64,000 bases of DNA from Candidatus Nomurabacteria bacterium (GTDB lineage Bacteria > Patescibacteriota > Minisyncoccia > Phycocordibacterales > UBA9973), in the NCBI GenBank assembly GCA_943350875.1, contig CALRAL010000002.1, forward strand, positions 68,221 through 132,220, given 5' to 3'. Position numbers and translations under genes: made by a program. The first letter of the stretch is position 1. Every line of letters begins with the position of its first letter. Of this stretch, positions 10,508-37,888 are shown one piece after another. Under the pieces are notes generated by a model. It was not told where the DNA came from and did not search any database. It worked only from the letters and a program-made list of their open reading frames with translations.

Positions 10508-10635
10508 CTCTCAAATGAGCTACAAAAACCACATTTCTGAAATACGAGATGTGGTTTTTTTTTATTTATACTACAAAACAATACGGTCGTCTTGTTTCAT
10601 AGTATACACAGGCAACGCCTGTGTATTTAATTTTG

Positions 10636-11033
10636 TGGAGATGCGGGGAATCGAACCCCGGTGCAGAAGGTTTTTACAAAGAAATCTACATACCTAGCGC
10701 ACTTTTTGGTTTAAATTGAAAAATTCTTAAGCGAGCCAAATATTTTTCAATCGATTCCTTTTGTTTCGAAAAAAAGTCAGGAAATTCTTTTCTCTATCCC
10801 GATTATATTATGCCTGCCCTCATATATCGGAAGTCTATGAGAGAGACACAAGCTTACGCTAAAGCGGAAACTTGAGCAAAAGCAAAGTCCTTCATACCGA
10901 AGTATGGAGAAGCGATTGCTTTTACTTTAGAAGCTAATTTTGCAATTAACATTTGAGCGAATTTTTATGAGATTACGCCCATGCTCAGTATGCATCAATG
11001 GTAAAAAGCCAACTGTCTATGCCTTGCATCCCC
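10636..11033 (-). ncRNA. ssrA: tmRNA (SsrA)
   Basis: 5' end GGGGAUGCAAGGCAUAGACAG... pairs with the 3' acceptor strand ...CAUCUCC-A and includes a G3:U70 wobble (alanine identity). A T-arm CGGGGTTCGATTCCCCG sits immediately 5' of the acceptor. An internal open frame ends ...FAFAQVSALA-TAA (stop at plus 10854-10856). smpB is immediately upstream on the same strand. Confidence 0.8.
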
Positions 11034-13559: not shown

Positions 13560-13805
13560 ATGTTTAGAATATATGTGTTAAAAAGTTTAAAAAATGGAAA
13601 GAGATATGTTGGTTATACGAGTAAAATGTCTGAAAAAAGACTAATCGAACACAATTCAGGATCTAATGCTTTTACAAGACAAAATAGGCCTTTTGTGCTA
13701 ATCTATACCGAGGAATATAGTACAAAAACTGAAGCAATAAAAAGAGAAATTTTTTTGAAATCGGGACAAGGAAGAAAATTTTTAGATAAAATTATCCGCG
13801 TGTAG
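13560..13805 (+). CDS. small GIY-YIG nuclease-family protein
   Basis: IYVLKSLKNGKRYVGYT (GIY...YIG) motif; the stop codon overlaps the first bases of the downstream tRNA. Confidence 0.6.
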   Translation: MFRIYVLKSLKNGKRYVGYTSKMSEKRLIEHNSGSNAFTRQNRPFVLIYTEEYSTKTEAIKREIFLKSGQGRKFLDKIIRV

Positions 13806-13868
13806 CTCAGTTGGTAGAGCAATCCGCTTATACCGGATCGGTCCCACGTTCGAGTCGTGGCACGCGGA
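13796..13868 (+). tRNA. tRNA with anticodon UAU (Ile-like, reads AUA)
   Basis: Manual cloverleaf. Acceptor CCGCGTG/CACGCGG, D-arm TAGCTCAGTTGGTAGAGC, anticodon stem ATCCG/CGGAT with loop CTTATAC, T-arm CCACG-TTCGAGT-CGTGG, discriminator A, no encoded CCA. Confidence 0.7.
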
Positions 13869-13918
13869 CTTGACAGAAAAGTGCATTAGGTGTATACTAT
13901 GTATACATTTATAATTAA

Positions 13919-18976: not shown

Positions 18977-19034
18977 GTTATCCACATTGAGATTTTGTAA
19001 TGTAGATGTATGATGTAGAAGTGTTTAACAAATA

Positions 19035-19200
19035 AATAGGTTCATATTGGGGAAGTGAGGTGAAAGTCCTCCACAGTGCCGCTACGGTAAGTCCGATTTT
19101 GATTGGACAAGTCCGAATACCAATATGATATGTAGTCCCGAGCAGGAATTTAAATACTTAACGTATTTTTAGCCAAATGACTCCTCGGAAGGAGTTTTTT
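19035..19200 (+). promoter_or_regulatory. cobalamin (B12) riboswitch with terminator/SD-sequestering expression platform
   Basis: GGGGAAGTGAGGTGAAAGTCCTCCACAGTGCCGCTACGGTAAGTCCG matches the conserved GGGAA..GGTGAAAnTCC...CCGCTAC.GTAAG core. A downstream AGTCCCGAGCAGGAA B12-box-like segment follows. Hairpin GACTCCTCGGAAGGAGT plus T8 includes the AAGGAG SD, 10 nt before the ATG at 19206. Confidence 0.7.
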
Positions 19201-19205
19201 TATTT

Positions 19206-19634
19206 ATGAAAACAGAAAAATACAAAATTATATTTATAACCGTCGTCTTCATTTTAGTGTTGGTTTTATTATATTCATATAAAAATATCTCTGTTTCTGT
19301 TGAAAATAAAGGCATGAAGAATGTAGATTCTTCTACAGGATCTAAAAAAGAAAATATTTCTGCAACTTTGATTGTTGGGGGAAAAAAAATACTTTTAACA
19401 TCCCAAATAAATTCATCTTTATATGATGTTCTTTTAGAAGCAAAGAAAAATAATCAGATAAATTTTACTGGTAAAGTTTACCCTTTGCTTGGTTTTTTTG
19501 TAGATAGTATTGATAATTTGAAAAATAAAGATGGAAAGTATTTGTTTTATTATATAAACGGTAAAGAGGCATCTGTCGGTGTTTCTAATTATATACTCAA
19601 AGACGGGGACGTGATTGAGTGGAAATTAAAATGA
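19206..19634 (+). CDS. membrane-anchored DUF4430-domain protein (transcobalamin/intrinsic-factor beta-domain-like; putative B12-binding)
   Basis: N-terminal TM anchor, then LFYYINGKEASVGVSNYILKDGDVIEWKL, characteristic of DUF4430. Lies downstream of the B12 riboswitch, with an ATGA overlap to the next gene. Confidence 0.6.
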   Translation: MKTEKYKIIFITVVFILVLVLLYSYKNISVSVENKGMKNVDSSTGSKKENISATLIVGGKKILLTSQINSSLYDVLLEAKKNNQINFTGKVYPLLGFFVDSIDNLKNKDGKYLFYYINGKEASVGVSNYILKDGDVIEWKLK

Positions 19635-24858: not shown

Positions 24859-24882
24859 GGGGATATTATAGCATTAATTCTG

Positions 24883-24969
24883 CGGATGAGGTGAGATTCG
24901 AACTCACGGTCCTTTTAAGGGGACGGCGGTTTAGTAAACCGCTGGCTTAAACCACTTGCCTACTCATCC
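24883..24969 (-). tRNA. type II (long variable arm) tRNA, Ser-like, apparent anticodon ACU
   Basis: Manual fold of the minus strand. Acceptor GGATGAG/CTCATCC, discriminator G, anticodon stem GCGGT/ACCGC with loop TTACTAA, long variable arm, T-arm GTGAG-TTCGAAT-CTCAC. Confidence 0.6.
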
Positions 24970-32216: not shown

Positions 32217-33275
32217 ATGGATTATAAGCAAAAATTGGAAGAGTTTATTTTAAGTGTTATTCACGAAAGTGGGTCTGATTTGCATTTGGGTGTAAGTAGA
32301 GTACCAGCTATCCGAGTGTCAGGAGAATTGATTTTTCTATTGAAAAATGAAGTTTTGACCAAAGAAGACATGCTGGGTTTCTTGTCCCAAGTCTTGGACA
32401 AGAAAAAAATAGATAAATTTATGGAAGATCAAGAGATTGATTTCTCTTACGATTTCCAAGGAGAGACGCGACTTCGGGGTAATGCATTTTTCTCCAAAGG
32501 TTTGATCAATATGGCTTTGCGTTTAGTACCAAAGGTGAAGACTTTAGACGAGCTTCATTTACCTCCGATTATTGCCGATATGACTCGCAAGAAGCAAGGT
32601 TTTTTCTTAGTCGTCGGTCCTGTTGGACAAGGTAAATCCACTACTTTATCTGCAATGGTGAATTTGATAAATAATGAACAAGCTAGGAACGTCGTGACGA
32701 TCGAAGATCCAATAGAATATGTTTATGTACCAAATAAATCCATTATTAGTCAGCGAGAAGTTGGTATTGATACAAAGGATTTCAATTCTGCTTTAAAATC
32801 TGTTTTTCGTCAAGATGTCAATGTTATAATGATAGGCGAAATGCGTACTCCAGAGAACATTGCTACAGCGGTGACGGCTGCCGAGACTGGACATTTGGTT
32901 CTTTCCACTTTACATACCAACAACGCTGCTCAAACTATAGACAGGATTATTGATGCTTTCCCGGGCAATCAGCAAGACCAGATCCGTTCTCAACTGGCCT
33001 CATCTTTGATCGGTGTTTTCTCTCAAAGATTGATTCCAAGGGTTGCAGGTGGACTTATTCCAGCCTATGAACTACTACTCAATAATAATGCAGTTTCCAA
33101 CCTTATTCGCGAGAAACGTACCCATGAGATAAATGTGGTGATAGAGACAGGTACTGAGTCTGGGATGGTGGACCTTAATCATTCACTTCTAGAGCTTGTG
33201 CGAACAGGAGAGATATCACTCGAGAGTGCTTACCAATATTCTATGAATCCCCAAGCTCTCCAAAAAATGTTGTAA
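32217..33275 (+). CDS. pilT: twitching-motility/retraction ATPase PilT
   Basis: Walker A VVGPVGQGKSTTLSAM; PilT-size (352 aa); AIRNLIRE-like motif NLIREKRTHEI. Confidence 0.8.
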   Translation: MDYKQKLEEFILSVIHESGSDLHLGVSRVPAIRVSGELIFLLKNEVLTKEDMLGFLSQVLDKKKIDKFMEDQEIDFSYDFQGETRLRGNAFFSKGLINMALRLVPKVKTLDELHLPPIIADMTRKKQGFFLVVGPVGQGKSTTLSAMVNLINNEQARNVVTIEDPIEYVYVPNKSIISQREVGIDTKDFNSALKSVFRQDVNVIMIGEMRTPENIATAVTAAETGHLVLSTLHTNNAAQTIDRIIDAFPGNQQDQIRSQLASSLIGVFSQRLIPRVAGGLIPAYELLLNNNAVSNLIREKRTHEINVVIETGTESGMVDLNHSLLELVRTGEISLESAYQYSMNPQALQKML

Positions 33276-33394: not shown

Positions 33395-34603
33395 ATGCTA
33401 TTTTCATACAAATCCGTAGATGACAAAGGAATAAAAAAGGAGGGAGAGATAGATGCTCCAAATAAAGACAGTGCCATCAGCGCTATCCAGAGGCGTGGGC
33501 TCATCATCACCTCTATTAAAGATATGGGAGATAATAAATCCATCTTCAGCATGTCTTTTTTTAATAAAGTAAAGATGAAAGAAGTGGTTATTCTCTCTAG
33601 GCAGATTTCTACCTTGTTTGAAGCGCAAGTTTCTGCTTTGAAAACTTTCACCATGCTTGCTTCTAGTTCTACGAACCCGCTTTTGCGTTATAAATTAAAC
33701 CAAGTTAGCGATGATTTGCAAGCAGGGCTATCCATCTCTGAAGCTCTTTCCAAGCATCCAGATGTATTTTCAGATTTTTATATCAATATGGTCAGGGTTG
33801 GGGAAGAGACTGGTAAATTGAATCAGACTTTTGCTCATTTGGCAGATTACCTCAATCGCCAATATGAACTTACCTCCAAGACTAAAAATGCTCTCATTTA
33901 TCCTATATTCGTCATTGTCACCTTTTTTGTAGTGATGGGACTGATGTTTGTAGTAGTTATTCCAAAGCTTTCTGCTATTATTCTAGATTCTGGACAAAAA
34001 CCGCCTGTTTATACCCAAGTCGTCATCGCTTTGTCTAGTTTCTTTGTGCATTACGGCTTCATTTTTATCATTTTCCTTATCCTTTTAGGTTTTTGGGTTT
34101 GGAGACTCTCTGCCACAGAGAAAGGCAAGATATATTTAGATAGGTTGAGTTTGTCTATCCCAGCTGTGGGTAGCCTTTACAAGAGACTATATCTTTCCCG
34201 TATTGCGGACAATATGAATACAATGTTAACCTCGGGTATTCAGATAGTGCGTGCGATAGAGATAACAGGGGCGGTAGTAGGTAGTAAAGTATATACAGAA
34301 ATTTTGAAAAATGCAGAAGACGGAGTCAAAGCCGGCTTGGCTTTTTCTACAACCCTAGAAAAGTACCCCGAAGAGATGCCGGGCATTATGGTGCAGATGG
34401 TAAAGGTGGGTGAGGAGACAGGGTCCCTGGGAGCAATTTTGAAGACTCTAGCAGAATTCTACAAACGTGAGGTGGATGACGCGATAGATACTTTAATAGG
34501 GCTTATTGAGCCGGTGATGATCATCGTGCTCGGTCTTGGCGTGGGTATTCTCCTAGTCTCAGTGCTGATGCCTATTTACAATATGGCAGGGAACATAAGT
34601 TAA
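33395..34603 (+). CDS. pilC: type IV pilus platform protein PilC (GspF family)
   Basis: Two T2SSF repeats, 3 TM segments, ~400 aa. Confidence 0.8.
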   Translation: MLFSYKSVDDKGIKKEGEIDAPNKDSAISAIQRRGLIITSIKDMGDNKSIFSMSFFNKVKMKEVVILSRQISTLFEAQVSALKTFTMLASSSTNPLLRYKLNQVSDDLQAGLSISEALSKHPDVFSDFYINMVRVGEETGKLNQTFAHLADYLNRQYELTSKTKNALIYPIFVIVTFFVVMGLMFVVVIPKLSAIILDSGQKPPVYTQVVIALSSFFVHYGFIFIIFLILLGFWVWRLSATEKGKIYLDRLSLSIPAVGSLYKRLYLSRIADNMNTMLTSGIQIVRAIEITGAVVGSKVYTEILKNAEDGVKAGLAFSTTLEKYPEEMPGIMVQMVKVGEETGSLGAILKTLAEFYKREVDDAIDTLIGLIEPVMIIVLGLGVGILLVSVLMPIYNMAGNIS

Positions 34604-34711
34604 AAAATTCAAACCCCTCCTGACCTCCCCTTGTCAGGGGAGGAAAAATATAAAAGTCCCCCTGACAAGGGGGATATAGGGGGTTGTATTCTAAATCTGT
34701 GCATAACTTTC

Positions 34712-34739: not shown

Positions 34740-34851
34740 ATCACATTAGAAAAGTATTTCAGCCAAAGGCTGATCCGCCTCGGGCGGAAAAAATTAAGTC
34801 GAAAAAATTATTATTAGCTTCCGCCATACGCGGATAAATTATAAATAAATT

Positions 34852-35295
34852 ATGAAGAATTTTAAAAAAGGTTTTACGTTAATCGAACTCTTGGTCGTTA
34901 TCGCTATCATTGGTATATTGGCTTCAGTTGTGTTGTCTTCCTTAAGCTCAGCTAGGAGTAAAGGTTATGATGCAAAGGTAAAAGCCCAACTTTCTGGAGT
35001 TAGAGCTGCTGCCGAAAATTATTACTCAACTGGTAATACTTATACTGCTTCAACAATGGCCGCACCAGCACTTCCTTGTACCGGTACAATGTTTATTGAT
35101 GCAGCTTCGGGAATGAGTGGGTATACAGGAACTGCAGCAGCATGGCCTACAGGTACATTGCTTAGTTGTCAAGCTACAGCTTCTGCTTATGCTGTAAGTG
35201 GTTCTCTTTCTTCAGGATTCTGGTGTGTTGACAGTGCGGGTAATTCAAAAAGTGAAGCTTCCAACTTGGGTTCTGGAGTGGTAGCTTGCCCATAA
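34852..35295 (+). CDS. pilA: type IV major pilin (prepilin)
   Basis: Class III leader KKGFTLIELLVVIAIIGILA (G/F cleavage site, E+5), C-terminal Cys pair. Confidence 0.85.
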   Translation: MKNFKKGFTLIELLVVIAIIGILASVVLSSLSSARSKGYDAKVKAQLSGVRAAAENYYSTGNTYTASTMAAPALPCTGTMFIDAASGMSGYTGTAAAWPTGTLLSCQATASAYAVSGSLSSGFWCVDSAGNSKSEASNLGSGVVACP

Positions 35296-35321
35296 TTTCC
35301 GTAAATATTCTTGTGAACACA

Positions 35322-35348
35322 AAAAACACCTCGAAAAGGTGTTTTTTG
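35322..35348 (+). terminator. rho-independent terminator after pilA
   Basis: AACACCTCGAAAAGGTGTT hairpin plus T-run. Confidence 0.55.
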
Positions 35349-35397
35349 TGTTATACTGTACAAGTAGTCTATATTATTAATATTAGAAAAATAAATT

Positions 35398-35604
35398 ATG
35401 AAGAATTTTAAAAAAGGTTTTACGTTAATCGAACTCTTGGTCGTTATCGCTATCATTGGTATATTGGCTTCAGTAATTCTTGCTATATCTAGTTCTTCTA
35501 GGAGTAAAGGTAATGATGCAAAGGTAATAACTCAAATAGTACAAATGGCCAGTCAAAGTTTTTTATTTAGTGGAACAACAGGGACTTCTTATGTATCAGT
35601 ATAG
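35398..35604 (+). pseudogene. truncated second pilin copy (first 26 aa identical to pilA, then diverges and stops at a REP element)
   Basis: MKNFKKGFTLIELLVVIAIIGILASV identical to the pilA N-terminus; the ORF ends exactly where the REP array begins. Confidence 0.5.
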
Positions 35605-35940
35605 CAAGAACCGTTCTTGCTACAGGAAGAAGTCATCCAAAAGATGGCTTTTTCTTTTTCCCCACGATAGCAAGAACCGTTCTTGCTACAAGAGTATAGC
35701 AAGAACCGTTCTAGTATAGCAAGAACCGTTCTTGCTACAGGAAGAAGTCATCCAAAAGAAGTATAGTATAGCAAGAACCGTTCTTGCTACAATCAAGAAA
35801 TCACCCCTCAAAGGGTGGTTTTTTGTATTGGGTGGGTTTTAGTATAGCAAGAACCGTTCTTGCTACAAGAAGAAGTCATCCAAAAGATGGCTTTTTCTTT
35901 TTCTACACGATAGCAAGAACCGTTCTTGCTACAAGTAATT
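35604..35940. repeat. array of ~8 REP-like palindromic units (TAGCAAGAACCGTTCTTGCTA) with repeated spacers (BIME-like)
   Basis: Palindromic 21-23-nt units at ~35605, 35667, 35694, 35713, 35767, 35847, 35918. Repeated inter-unit segment GGAAGAAGTCATCCAAAAGATGGCTTTTTCTTTTTC. Confidence 0.8.
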
Positions 35941-35960
35941 AAACTTGATATACTTTAACC

Positions 35961-36641
35961 ATGTTGCGCAAAGATCCATTTATAACAGGCGAGTATTATC
36001 ATCTATATAATAGAGGCATAGACAAAAGAGTAATTTTTAAATCAAAAAATGACTATGAAAGGTTCATTATGCTTTTGTATGTCGCGAATTCTAACAACAA
36101 ACAGCCTCTTCGTTTGGATAATTTAATTAATCATTCTCATAAGAATTTTAATGAGATTATGCTTTTAGATAAAGGTGAACCACTTGTTTCTATTGGAGCT
36201 TGGTGTCTGATGACTAACCATTTTCATTTATTAGTTCGACAAGAGGTTGATGGGGGAATTACAAAATTTATGAAAAAACTGGGTACTGGATATTCCATGT
36301 TTTTTAATATTAAATATCAAAGAAGTGGAGCTCTTTTTGGTGGTTTATTTAAATCAAAGTTGATTGGGAATGATGATAATTACATAAGACACTTACTGGG
36401 CTATATTCATCTAAATCCACTTGATATTAAATTCTCTGGTTGGGAAAAAATTATTGAGGAAGCATATTCAAAAGAATGGAAGGATTTTCTAGAGAATTAT
36501 CTATATTCAAGCTATAAGGATTATATTGGTGAAGATAGGGTGGAGAAGAATATTTTAGATATTAAGAATTTCCCTGATTATTTTAATGAAGAAAATTTGT
36601 TTGAAGATTTTATAGATAATTACTTAATGGAAACATTATAG
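35961..36641 (+). CDS. REP-associated tyrosine transposase (RAYT; IS200/IS605-like Y1 HUH transposase)
   Basis: HUH motif NHFHLLV and catalytic-Tyr motif GYIHLNPL; REP palindromes flank it on both sides (variant copy at 36644-36668). Confidence 0.7.
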   Translation: MLRKDPFITGEYYHLYNRGIDKRVIFKSKNDYERFIMLLYVANSNNKQPLRLDNLINHSHKNFNEIMLLDKGEPLVSIGAWCLMTNHFHLLVRQEVDGGITKFMKKLGTGYSMFFNIKYQRSGALFGGLFKSKLIGNDDNYIRHLLGYIHLNPLDIKFSGWEKIIEEAYSKEWKDFLENYLYSSYKDYIGEDRVEKNILDIKNFPDYFNEENLFEDFIDNYLMETL

Positions 36642-37102
36642 CACTATAGCAAGGACCGTCCTTGCTACAATCAAAGGTGTTTTTGTATTGGGTGCGTTTT
36701 GTGTTTTGTGGTATAATTAAATTATGTTAAATTCACTTATAAACCTAGAAGCTTTAGGAGAAATAAGTAAAGATTTAGGTCAGATTTTTTTCGCTTCAGT
36801 TTTTCTTACTAGTTTAATGGGGAATGTGATAGATTATTCCACTATCTTTACAGGACTGATTTTATCATTAGTTTTTTGGTCGTTTTATGTTATATCTAGG
36901 AAAAATATTAATAATTAATTCATGAATATAAATGTTATGATAAATATATATATACTCGGGGCTTTATTAGCTATTGCAATTATACTTTTAGCTATTTTTG
37001 CAAAAAAAAGATAATCGCTAGTTTCCAATGAAAAGGGATATTTTCTGATTGTTTTTGGATATGTTATAATATACCAGATTATTATTTAAACAATTTACAA
37101 AA

Positions 37103-37888
37103 ATGATCCCCATGCTCACTATCATCTTTTTCATTCTAGGGCTTATTATAGGTAGTTTTTTGAATGTCGTTATTTTAAGATACAACACTGGCAAATCTTT
37201 CCGCGGGCGTAGTGGATGTATGACTTGCAGGAATTTGCTTTCTTGGTATGAACTCATCCCACTTATTAGTTTTGTGGCTCTCGGTGGGAAATGTAAGAAT
37301 TGCAAAACTAAGATCTCTTTCCAATATCCTCTTGTGGAGCTCTCGATGGGGCTCATCTTTATGGGGCTCTTTCTGAAGTTCCAAGATCTTTTTTATTTTG
37401 ACACTTTGGCTTTCAGTTTTACTTATGGGTATTATGCAGTGATGTTTTCACTCCTGATGATCATCGCAGTGTATGACCTGAAGCATAAGATAATTCCTGA
37501 TTTACTTTCTTTCATCTTTGGCGCTTTGGCCTTTGTGGGGATGTTCTTCTTCAGTAGTAACGGCTATTATACACATATTCCAAATCTTTCTGATTTTTTA
37601 TCGGGGCTGGCTGTGGCTGTGCCTTTTTCACTATTTTGGTTCTTATCCAAAGGGGCTTGGATGGGCTTAGGGGATGCAAAGCTCTCTCTAGGGCTTGGTT
37701 GGTTCCTAGGGCTTTCTATGATGCTTTCAGGTGTAGTGGTAGCATTTTGGTCTGGAGCTATCATAGGCTTGGTGCTTATTTCTTTTTCAAAGATGCATGG
37801 CATGAAGAGTGAGATTCCTTTTGCTCCGTTTTTAGTTTTTGGTACAGTGATAGCTTTTCTTTTCGAACTGCATCTTTTCCCTTTTTAA
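37103..37888 (+). CDS. pilD: prepilin peptidase (A24 family) PilD
   Basis: N-terminal CxxC...CxxC zinc motif (CMTCRN...CKNCKT), two Asp catalytic regions, polytopic. Confidence 0.8.
   Translation: MIPMLTIIFFILGLIIGSFLNVVILRYNTGKSFRGRSGCMTCRNLLSWYELIPLISFVALGGKCKNCKTKISFQYPLVELSMGLIFMGLFLKFQDLFYFDTLAFSFTYGYYAVMFSLLMIIAVYDLKHKIIPDLLSFIFGALAFVGMFFFSSNGYYTHIPNLSDFLSGLAVAVPFSLFWFLSKGAWMGLGDAKLSLGLGWFLGLSMMLSGVVVAFWSGAIIGLVLISFSKMHGMKSEIPFAPFLVFGTVIAFLFELHLFPF

Follow-up and report, generated by a model that had tools for sequence, protein, structure and literature searches.

The REPtron, a single gene for a REP-associated tyrosine transposase (RAYT) bracketed by its cognate repetitive extragenic palindromes (REPs), is the closest described counterpart of the locus analysed here, and its E. 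coli form, TnpA_REP with its REPs, is assigned to subclass 2.2 (PMC6006769) and to RAYT group 2 (PMC5581495). Work on REPs and RAYTs has been almost confined to Proteobacteria, whose genomes carry hundreds of REPs that vary from genus to genus. The present locus lies in a 64,000-nucleotide stretch of contig CALRAL010000002.1 from a Candidatus Nomurabacteria bacterium (assembly GCA_943350875.1), hereafter the window, in which a RAYT-like gene and a series of REP-like palindromes split a type IV pilus locus between pilA and pilD, at the position given by the initial annotation, and directly follow a truncated second pilin gene, termed pilin 2. In most respects the element fits the description of a REPtron and would operate as one (PMC6006769; PMC5581495), and it is likely that an ancestral REPtron underwent a lineage-specific expansion of its REPs, which truncated a pilin. 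The kind of element is already known, and its conserved, lineage-wide version in Patescibacteria is apparently undescribed; the searched literature contained no account of REP/RAYT systems in the Candidate Phyla Radiation, an absence that holds for that literature only. The features on which the comparison is built are as follows.

35389 to 35474, plus strand: tract identical to pilA, 86 nt, 100% identical to 34843-34928, comprising 9 nt upstream, codons 1-25 and the first two bases of codon 26
35398 to 35604, plus strand: pilin 2, the 68-residue 5′ remnant of a divergent second pilin, without the globular C-terminal half and with its stop supplied by REP1
35602 to 35622, plus strand: REP1 (TAGCAAGAACCGTTCTTGCTA)
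35623 to 35667, plus strand: spacer A copy 1, with terminator-like hairpin GAAGAAGTCATC-CAAAA-GATGGCTTTTTCTT
35668 to 35688, plus strand: REP2
35693 to 35732, plus strand: perfect 20-nt tandem duplication (AGTATAGCAAGAACCGTTCT twice), generating a partial REP at 35697-35712 just before REP4
35717 to 35737, plus strand: REP4
35738 to 35768, plus strand: spacer A′, truncated, its first 22 nt the same as spacer A
35769 to 35789, plus strand: REP5
35790 to 35844, plus strand: spacer B, with terminator-like hairpin CACCCCTCAAAGGGTG and a T run, akin to what follows REP8
35845 to 35865, plus strand: REP6
35866 to 35910, plus strand: spacer A copy 2
35911 to 35931, plus strand: REP7, RAYT-proximal; the RAYT promoter has its -35 hexamer in the 3′ arm of this REP, TTGCTA (35926-35931)
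35949 to 35954, plus strand: RAYT -10 box TATACT with TG before it, 17 nt after the -35 hexamer and 6 nt before the ATG
35961 to 36641, plus strand: RAYT-like HUH/Y1 protein of 226 residues, with H87-F-H89, Y148-IHL-N152-P153 and a C-terminal extension carrying Y180, S183 and S184
36647 to 36667, plus strand: REP8, compensatory variant TAGCAAGGACCGTCCTTGCTA, of the type seen at locus L095
36668 to 36723, plus strand: spacer B′, shortened by deletion relative to spacer B, then TGGTATAAT, a promoter-like box for orf64

The open reading frame (ORF) at 35961-36641 encodes an HUH/Y1 protein resembling REP-associated transposases, with the palindromes as its REP-like partners. The HUH (HFHLLV) and YIHLNP motifs read in the initial annotation hold on an alignment of 62 diverse homologues, in which the positions conserved in at least 90% of sequences include Y13, H14, R18, G19, H87, H89, Y148, N152, Y180, S183 and S184, the last being invariant. 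Quentin et al. (PMC6006769) define class 2, that of TnpA_REP, by the “Y---NP” tyrosine motif. Membership of the Y1_Tnp family, the check suggested at the outset, was obtained by a narrow pass of the Pfam gathering score (25.6 vs 23 bits), and Pfam revealed no DnaA_C or helix-turn-helix domain. A phmmer search against PDB sequences returned nothing relevant, and a PDB profile search with the 62-homologue alignment matched only ISDra2 TnpA and E. coli TnpA_REP (PDB code 4er8), weakly. With the AlphaFold (AF2) model (pLDDT 95, pTM 0.92), the best Foldseek match was 4er8, TnpA_REP bound to its REP hairpin (E of 5.4e-6 and TM-score of 0.63 on the target), followed by IS608 TnpA and ISDra2 TnpA. The family is very large, comprising 14,819 clusters (50% identity) at E ≤ 1e-3; the best 120 homologues in a collection clustered at 90% are 70-79% identical, and those with names belong to the Parcubacteria group (Nomurabacteria and Zambryskibacteria among others). 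Matches found by tblastn against plasmids were only 25-35% identical “transposases” and did not settle the subclass. The RAYT gene, present as one copy in the window and as one homologue per multi-REP genome among the fetched REP stretches, is probably domesticated.

Two described subclasses share features with the window protein. The pattern YHVxxRG...HxHLL...LFQGRxKS...YIHLNP, which we take to be typical of subclass 2.1 or RAYT group 1, would fit the window RAYT. Proteins of subclass 2.1 (TnpA_Y1) and group 1 (PMC6006769, PMC5581495) likewise belong to class 2, are long, and carry a C-terminal extension and a serine motif after the catalytic tyrosine, with a low abundance of flanking repeats and a wide taxonomic spread, but REP-like sequences are reported to be absent beside subclass 2.1 genes (PMC6006769), whereas 58 of 76 loci have one here. 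The best structural match, E. coli TnpA_REP (RayT/YafM, 4er8) with its REPs and bacterial interspersed mosaic elements (BIMEs), has in common with the window element the HUH and Y---NP motifs, a single gene with hairpin repeats on both sides, dispersed and extragenic repeats, and a stem under structural selection. It differs in several respects. Identity in the structural alignment is ~12% and the window protein scores below the equivalog cut-off; with 226 residues, it carries a C-terminal extension of ~75 residues with conserved Y180, S183 and S184. The W-Q residues tied to recognition of the GTAG guide (PMC6006769) are replaced by LF-G-FKSK. The window REP is a 21-nt near-perfect palindrome lacking both a conserved GT[AG]G foot and a bulge, and it is found in 1-7 copies per genome rather than hundreds, with a core constant across dozens of species.

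REP copy numbers per genome were taken from relatives (species-representative genomes), while the organism’s own genome was scanned within the 64-kb window. The exact 21-mer was found in 83 stretches of species-representative genomes, belonging to Patescibacteria in all but one contig and mostly to Paceibacteria lineages; the first 80 of these 83 stretches represent 55 assemblies and at least 55 species, with 1-7 exact copies each, many of them at contig ends. The one contig labelled otherwise, L024 (CAZCHJ010000062.1, 4.7 kb), comes from a metagenome-assembled genome assigned to Gammaproteobacteria, and may owe its label to contamination during binning, not to a real presence of the 21-mer beyond the phylum. 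Many further matches are labelled “uncultured Candidatus Saccharibacteria”, with a gene content resembling that of Paceibacteria. About 13 of the 83 stretches adjoin a RAYT homologue, the ~70 others being dispersed and mostly carrying REPs as singlets. The repeat is mostly extragenic, since 19 of 100 REPs fall inside stop-to-stop ORFs of at least 90 residues, vs 88% of bases.

The core GCAAGnAC-N-GTnCTTGC is the same, with a free central base, in all 68 distinct RAYT-proximal REPs, while stem pairs 11-17, 5-23, 4-24 and 3-25 switch among A-T, G-C, T-A and C-G. Overall, 90% of stem cells are paired and 115 changes are double-sided, vs 40 in shuffles (0 of 500 shuffles as high); controls in which the pairing register was slid all drop to 34-46%. 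In dispersed copies, complementarity extends to the outer flanks (74%, 54% and 47% vs 29% by chance). Such covariation reads as the signature of a selected hairpin, as would be expected for the substrate of an HUH enzyme. Partial arm copies with a variable outer flank often lie beside full REPs (L029:3625-3690, L007:6160-6220, L080, L084 and window 35693-35737), for example tcgtTAGCAAGAAC-tcgtTAGCAAGAACCGTTCTTGCTAacga-CTTGCTAacga; these duplications are symmetric and keep the palindrome, and could originate from REP-into-REP insertion, fold-back synthesis or slippage.

A second conserved property is the place of the REP in front of its gene. Among 16 genome and 76 metagenome RAYT loci, most have a REP whose centre lies 40±1 nt upstream of the RAYT ATG. 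A distance of 16-18 nt, as a rule 17, separates the 3′ arm TTGCTA of this REP from a TAnnnT box, mostly TATAAT or TATACT, that ends 6 nt before the ATG; in the window the arrangement reads TTGCTA-17-TATACT-6-ATG. This -35/17/-10/6/ATG geometry was observed at 14 of 16 genome and 60 of 76 metagenome RAYT loci, vs 16 of 159 control sides of dispersed REPs. A REP lies within 60 nt upstream of RAYT at 58 of 76 loci and within 60 nt downstream at 54 of 80, in the latter case 0-42 nt after a stop that is often the REP’s own TAG. Promoter-like sites in the region are overall not above chance in number, and the assignment of the RAYT promoter derives from the cross-species geometry and not from the region-wide scan. 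Because the RAYT-proximal REP overlaps the -35 box, occupancy of this REP by RAYT, or extrusion of its hairpin, would be predicted to throttle transcription of the RAYT gene itself. Across the whole window, only 4 of 57 genes have a Shine-Dalgarno-like motif in front of them and -10 boxes often lie directly before starts, suggesting that leaderless or very short-leader mRNAs are widespread; a TATAAT box ends 6-8 nt before the start of several first operon genes (4686, 6518, 23676, 24103, 36724). A RAYT mRNA without a leader would fit this style.

Upstream of the RAYT gene, the window departs from the other loci compared. The 21-mer TAGCAAGAACCGTTCTTGCTA occurs in six exact copies (starts at 35602, 35668, 35717, 35769, 35845 and 35911), vs 0 expected from 100 shuffles; a partial copy of 16 nt and a compensatory variant bring the number to the “about eight” units described initially. 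The variant said to close the unit is indeed present, at 36647-36667 rather than 36644-36668, and differs by a compensatory double change (GGACCGTCC). The central base is identical on the plus strand in all window copies. The repeated spacer also proved real, a 100-nt REP-spacer A-REP unit being found twice (95% identity) and once truncated. The array contains two kinds of spacer, each with a terminator-like hairpin, and REP-spacer B recurs in shortened form after the downstream REP; the REP-45 nt-REP units are direct, not inverted. Folding of the array is far above that of shuffles (z = -14). With seven REPs upstream, vs 0-3 within 600 nt upstream at ~95 other loci, the window is unique, as it is for the truncated pilin and for an extra orf64/orf30 segment. 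Spacers A and B have no counterparts in any fetched locus, and the idea that REP-spacer A-REP is a dispersed, mobile doublet resembling a REPIN (a paired REP unit) was therefore rejected. Three other candidates for the array were ruled out: a CRISPR-like array, by two same-sequence spacers, irregular spacing (8-55 nt) and the lack of cas genes; a known RNA family, as Rfam had no match in 34.6-37.1 kb; and a DNA uptake sequence, for which the copy number is far too low.

The first REP of this array is also where pilin 2 ends. As the initial annotation had it, pilin 2 shares its first 26 codons with pilA and ends at the first palindrome; at the nucleotide level the shared tract measures 86 nt and starts 9 nt before the ATG, and the stop codon TAG (35602-35604) is formed by the first three bases of REP1. 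Beyond the tract, pilA and pilin 2 are mosaic and much more divergent, and since the identical tract sits within such flanks it is best attributed to gene conversion from pilA. Pilin 2 can be aligned with full-length pilins to about residue 65, and what is missing is the C-terminal WCVDSxGxSK...CP half, which is present in all eight full-length relatives compared. No pilin C-terminal remnant was found downstream of pilin 2, which argues for deletion or replacement and not for simple insertion. In keeping N-terminal methylation motif and alpha-1 helix while losing the globular domain, pilin 2 resembles truncated or pseudogenised type IV pilin paralogues of multi-pilin operons, from which it differs in that its break lies exactly at a mobile palindrome and its 5′ end was overwritten from the adjacent pilA.

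The 68-residue ORF might instead encode a functional short pilin reduced to the alpha-1 helix, as in Geobacter PilA-N, with the REP merely acting as its terminator. Its class III signal peptide and GFTLIE motif are kept, the ORF is uninterrupted, and further short pilin-like ORFs occur on long contigs (P0392, P0406, P0422). However, a search for short homologues identified no conserved 68-residue family and no close or length-conserved homologue: the closest homologue, P0391 (70% identity, sharing the distinctive stretch QIxQMxSQxFLFSG), extends past the truncation point, and pilins at the equivalent position in syntenic relatives have 144-171 residues. In addition, the stop codon belongs to the repeat, the -10-like TATAAA at -12 to -7 of pilA is replaced by GAAAAA before pilin 2, and a strong terminator ends pilA. 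A functional short pilin is thus very improbable indeed, and pilin 2 is considered a truncated pilin rather than a conserved short minor pilin. A 27-mer specific to pilin 2, scanned in JGI metagenomes for an intact allele of the same species, gave 0 matches.

The history of the locus was approached through its relatives. Full-length pilins (121-174 residues) were found in the order pilC-pilin(s)-RAYT-pilD in those relatives with RAYT at this place that were looked at in detail, as the comparison proposed in the initial annotation was meant to reveal. Loci L025 and L097, from one species with RAYT 78% identical, contain pilins of 121 and 144 residues, then REP, RAYT, REP and pilD, while L095 and L101 (RAYT 78%) contain pilins of 142 and 171 residues, two REPs, RAYT, REP and pilD. 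In L171, whose RAYT is the closest found (81%), a single 174-residue pilin is present and RAYT has the same position in the pil locus; the gene itself (L171:2942-3529) is truncated C-terminally to 195 residues, ~30 short, with no REP within 60 nt after the stop by pattern, and is possibly a decaying copy. A pilin upstream and/or PilD downstream of RAYT was also seen in L128, L133, L172, L176 and L170, the detailed look being confined to L025/L097, L095/L101 and L171. With L128/L133 counted, RAYT is placed between the last pilin and pilD in four or more other species, L172, L176 and L170 being weaker cases. As the pilin-RAYT-pilD order with intact pilins recurs in several related species, the position of RAYT appears to be old, presumably ancestral; and as syntenic relatives keep intact pilins, RAYT would not have arrived recently and its presence alone seems harmless to the neighbouring pilin. 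The proposal that a REP/RAYT insertion disrupted a second pilin finds support in the truncation of pilin 2 at a REP, and no support in the age of the RAYT position, the intact pilins of relatives and the missing 3′ remnant.

Much the same proposal regards REP-RAYT-REP as an autonomous IS200/IS605-like insertion sequence (IS) that entered the pilus operon whole and disrupted pilin 2 as it landed, possibly with repeated entry into the same pilin-terminator hairpin. The window element has the HUH/Y1 fold and the subterminal hairpins at both gene ends of IS200/IS605 TnpA systems (IS608, ISDra2), and its hairpins bracket the gene as tightly as IS left and right ends. RAYT homologues occur in unrelated contexts in other genomes (L003, L004, L096), and RAYT is missing from relatives whose PilD is closer than that of L025. 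Nevertheless, the tyrosine motif is of the class-2 Y---NP type and not of the IS200 type, the element is present once in the window with no identical copies, and it uses one hairpin at both ends that is dispersed also without the gene. The nearest homologue outside its own cluster is 79% identical in the collection, giving no sign of recent spread, pilin-RAYT-pilD with intact pilins in several species (RAYT 78-81%) argues for inheritance, and no pilin 3′ half lies beyond the element. Arrival as an autonomous IS is therefore judged unlikely.

REP-bounded rearrangement is not restricted to the window. At L025:5040-6051, a tandem duplication with a 254-nt period comprises a REP, the promoter and the first 66 RAYT codons, and leaves a 68-residue RAYT fragment whose stop is the TAG of the REP that follows, a truncation of the type seen in pilin 2. 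Since this fragment likewise ends at a REP, such rearrangements appear to recur. Just upstream of the duplication, a succession of partial left arms (TGTAGCAGA, TGTAGCAAGGA, TGTAGGA, TGTAGCAAGA) separates the pilin stop from the full REP.

The initial annotation had offered, as its other possibility, that the repeats mediate rearrangement of pilin cassettes. Taken as a pilin-variation system, in which REP/RAYT-driven recombination shuffles or replaces pilin genes, the locus would account for the one to three pilin genes seen between pilC and pilD among relatives, for the gene-conversion tract between pilA and pilin 2, and for one RAYT clade that sits exactly at the pilin/pilD junction. Neither silent pilin cassettes nor fragments were found among the repeats or elsewhere in the window, however, and the spacers are terminator-like hairpins without counterparts, not pilin sequence. 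No REP lies at the borders of the gene-conversion tract, and only 6-7 of 80 RAYT loci are in pil operons, ~90% being elsewhere. Cassette rearrangement accordingly finds no support, and a dedicated variation system is scarcely credible. A related reading, in which the RAYT kept at the pilin/pilD junction of a Paceibacteria subclade acts through adjacent REP hairpins to remodel pilins recurrently by truncation, duplication, loss and gene conversion, is a very speculative proposal that we hold to be quite improbable. If it were true, episymbiotic, pilus-dependent bacteria would possess a built-in variation of their major surface filament, and the -35 box embedded in a REP would couple the rate of pilin remodelling to RAYT occupancy.

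The ancestral REPtron with a locally expanded REP array remains the favoured account. It would begin with a full-length, divergent second pilin followed by the REPtron. The upstream REPs would then have grown from the usual 1-3 to 7 by duplication of REP-terminator-REP units and by the 20-nt slippage duplication, and a REP-ended deletion would have taken the 3′ half of pilin 2, leaving a 68-residue remnant closed by the REP1 TAG. In a separate event, gene conversion would have homogenised the start of this remnant with pilA. The order of these truncation events is proposed from the sequence arrangement. Mechanistically, RAYT is predicted to bind the REP hairpin in single-stranded DNA, for example in the lagging-strand template, to cut beside it via Tyr148 with an HUH-bound metal, and to rejoin the DNA so that REPs are copied or moved in trans into extragenic sites, where repeated REPs may then serve as substrates for recombination or slippage.

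Several observations weigh against this account. Catalysis and trans-mobilisation are predicted by homology with E. coli TnpA_REP and IS608 TnpA; sequence similarity to E. coli TnpA_REP is marginal (profile E about 0.03), and the score lies far below the NCBIfam REP_Tyr_transpos equivalog cut-off (28.4 vs 80 bits). Some relatives whose PilD is 71-72% identical, closer than that of the RAYT-bearing L025 (62%), lack RAYT, so that an ancestral position requires losses or repeated hits at the site; these relatives have pilC, one to three full-length pilins (152-179 residues) and pilD, without RAYT, REP or orf64. The REP copy number, 1-7 per genome in relatives, is very low compared with classical REPs, and within the organism’s own 64-kb window no REP lies outside the RAYT locus. 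The conserved 5′ GT[AG]G foot is absent, positions around TAGCAAG...CTTGCTA being variable in 118 instances; the minus strand reads TGTAGC at the REP flank only in the window genome and L025. Inverted doublets of the REPIN type are unrecognisable because the unit is a near-perfect palindrome whose orientation is set only by the free central base. Symmetric covariation could alternatively derive from a duplex operator bound by a dimer, which is the weaker alternative. Finally, independent short-read assemblies of the same samples break within the REP array and within the tract shared by pilA and pilin 2; the repeats are real, but the order and number of their units rest on one assembly.

The surrounding pilus locus has the following layout.

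32217 to 33275 (pilT) and 33395 to 34603 (pilC): part of the type IV pilus operon, ordered pilB, response regulator, pilT, pilC, pilA, then pilD, minor pilins and ligA
34852 to 35295, plus strand: pilA, a full-length type IV pilin of 147 residues with the conserved C-terminal WCVDSxGxSK...CP
35316 to 35352, plus strand: pilA terminator-like hairpin, a perfect 16-bp inverted repeat followed by a T run
36724 to 37014, plus strand: orf64, with two predicted transmembrane helices, and orf30
37103 to 37888, plus strand: pilD, prepilin peptidase

An exact-product look-up of pilA gave no record. The segment of ~430 nt between REP8 and pilD (36669-37102) holds the two small ORFs, of 64 and 30 residues, and orf64 is preceded by the promoter-like box 6 nt before its ATG; the segment has no counterpart in any relative’s pil locus examined or in any fetched locus. 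On the other side of pilA, 3′ of pilC (34612-34690), G+C-rich inverted repeats CCCCTTGTCAGGGG ... CCCCTGACAAGGGG, 14 nt long, 100% complementary and 18 nt apart, contrast with the AT-rich surroundings. They are unrelated to the REP, and could represent either a terminator acting in both directions or a further small family of repeats. Elsewhere in the window, a tmRNA gene (10633-11033) encodes the tag peptide ASPYFGMKDFAFAQVSALA, and ARAGORN reported a tRNA-Ile with anticodon TAT at 13796-13869 and a tRNA-Ser with anticodon ACT at 24882-24969, both anticodons being unusual. An AdoCbl-II (cobalamin) riboswitch match at 19032-19129 (38.5 vs gathering 36.5 bits) lies upstream of the ORF at 19206.

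The locus bears on the biology of these bacteria at several levels. REP palindromes break short-read assemblies, which bears on the quality of metagenome-assembled genomes. Genomes of this group are typically ~1 Mb, a size assumed here, and Patescibacteria are thought to depend on the type IV pilus operon for host attachment and DNA uptake. A REP array can erode an adjoining gene, which here is a pilin of that operon. With a handful of REP copies and a 17-nt hairpin core unchanged across dozens of species, in genomes assumed to be small, the covarying stem and its fixed place in the promoter of its own enzyme gene offer a compact comparative-genomics model in which to ask how a domesticated HUH enzyme co-evolves with its hairpin and how such an enzyme is kept in check.

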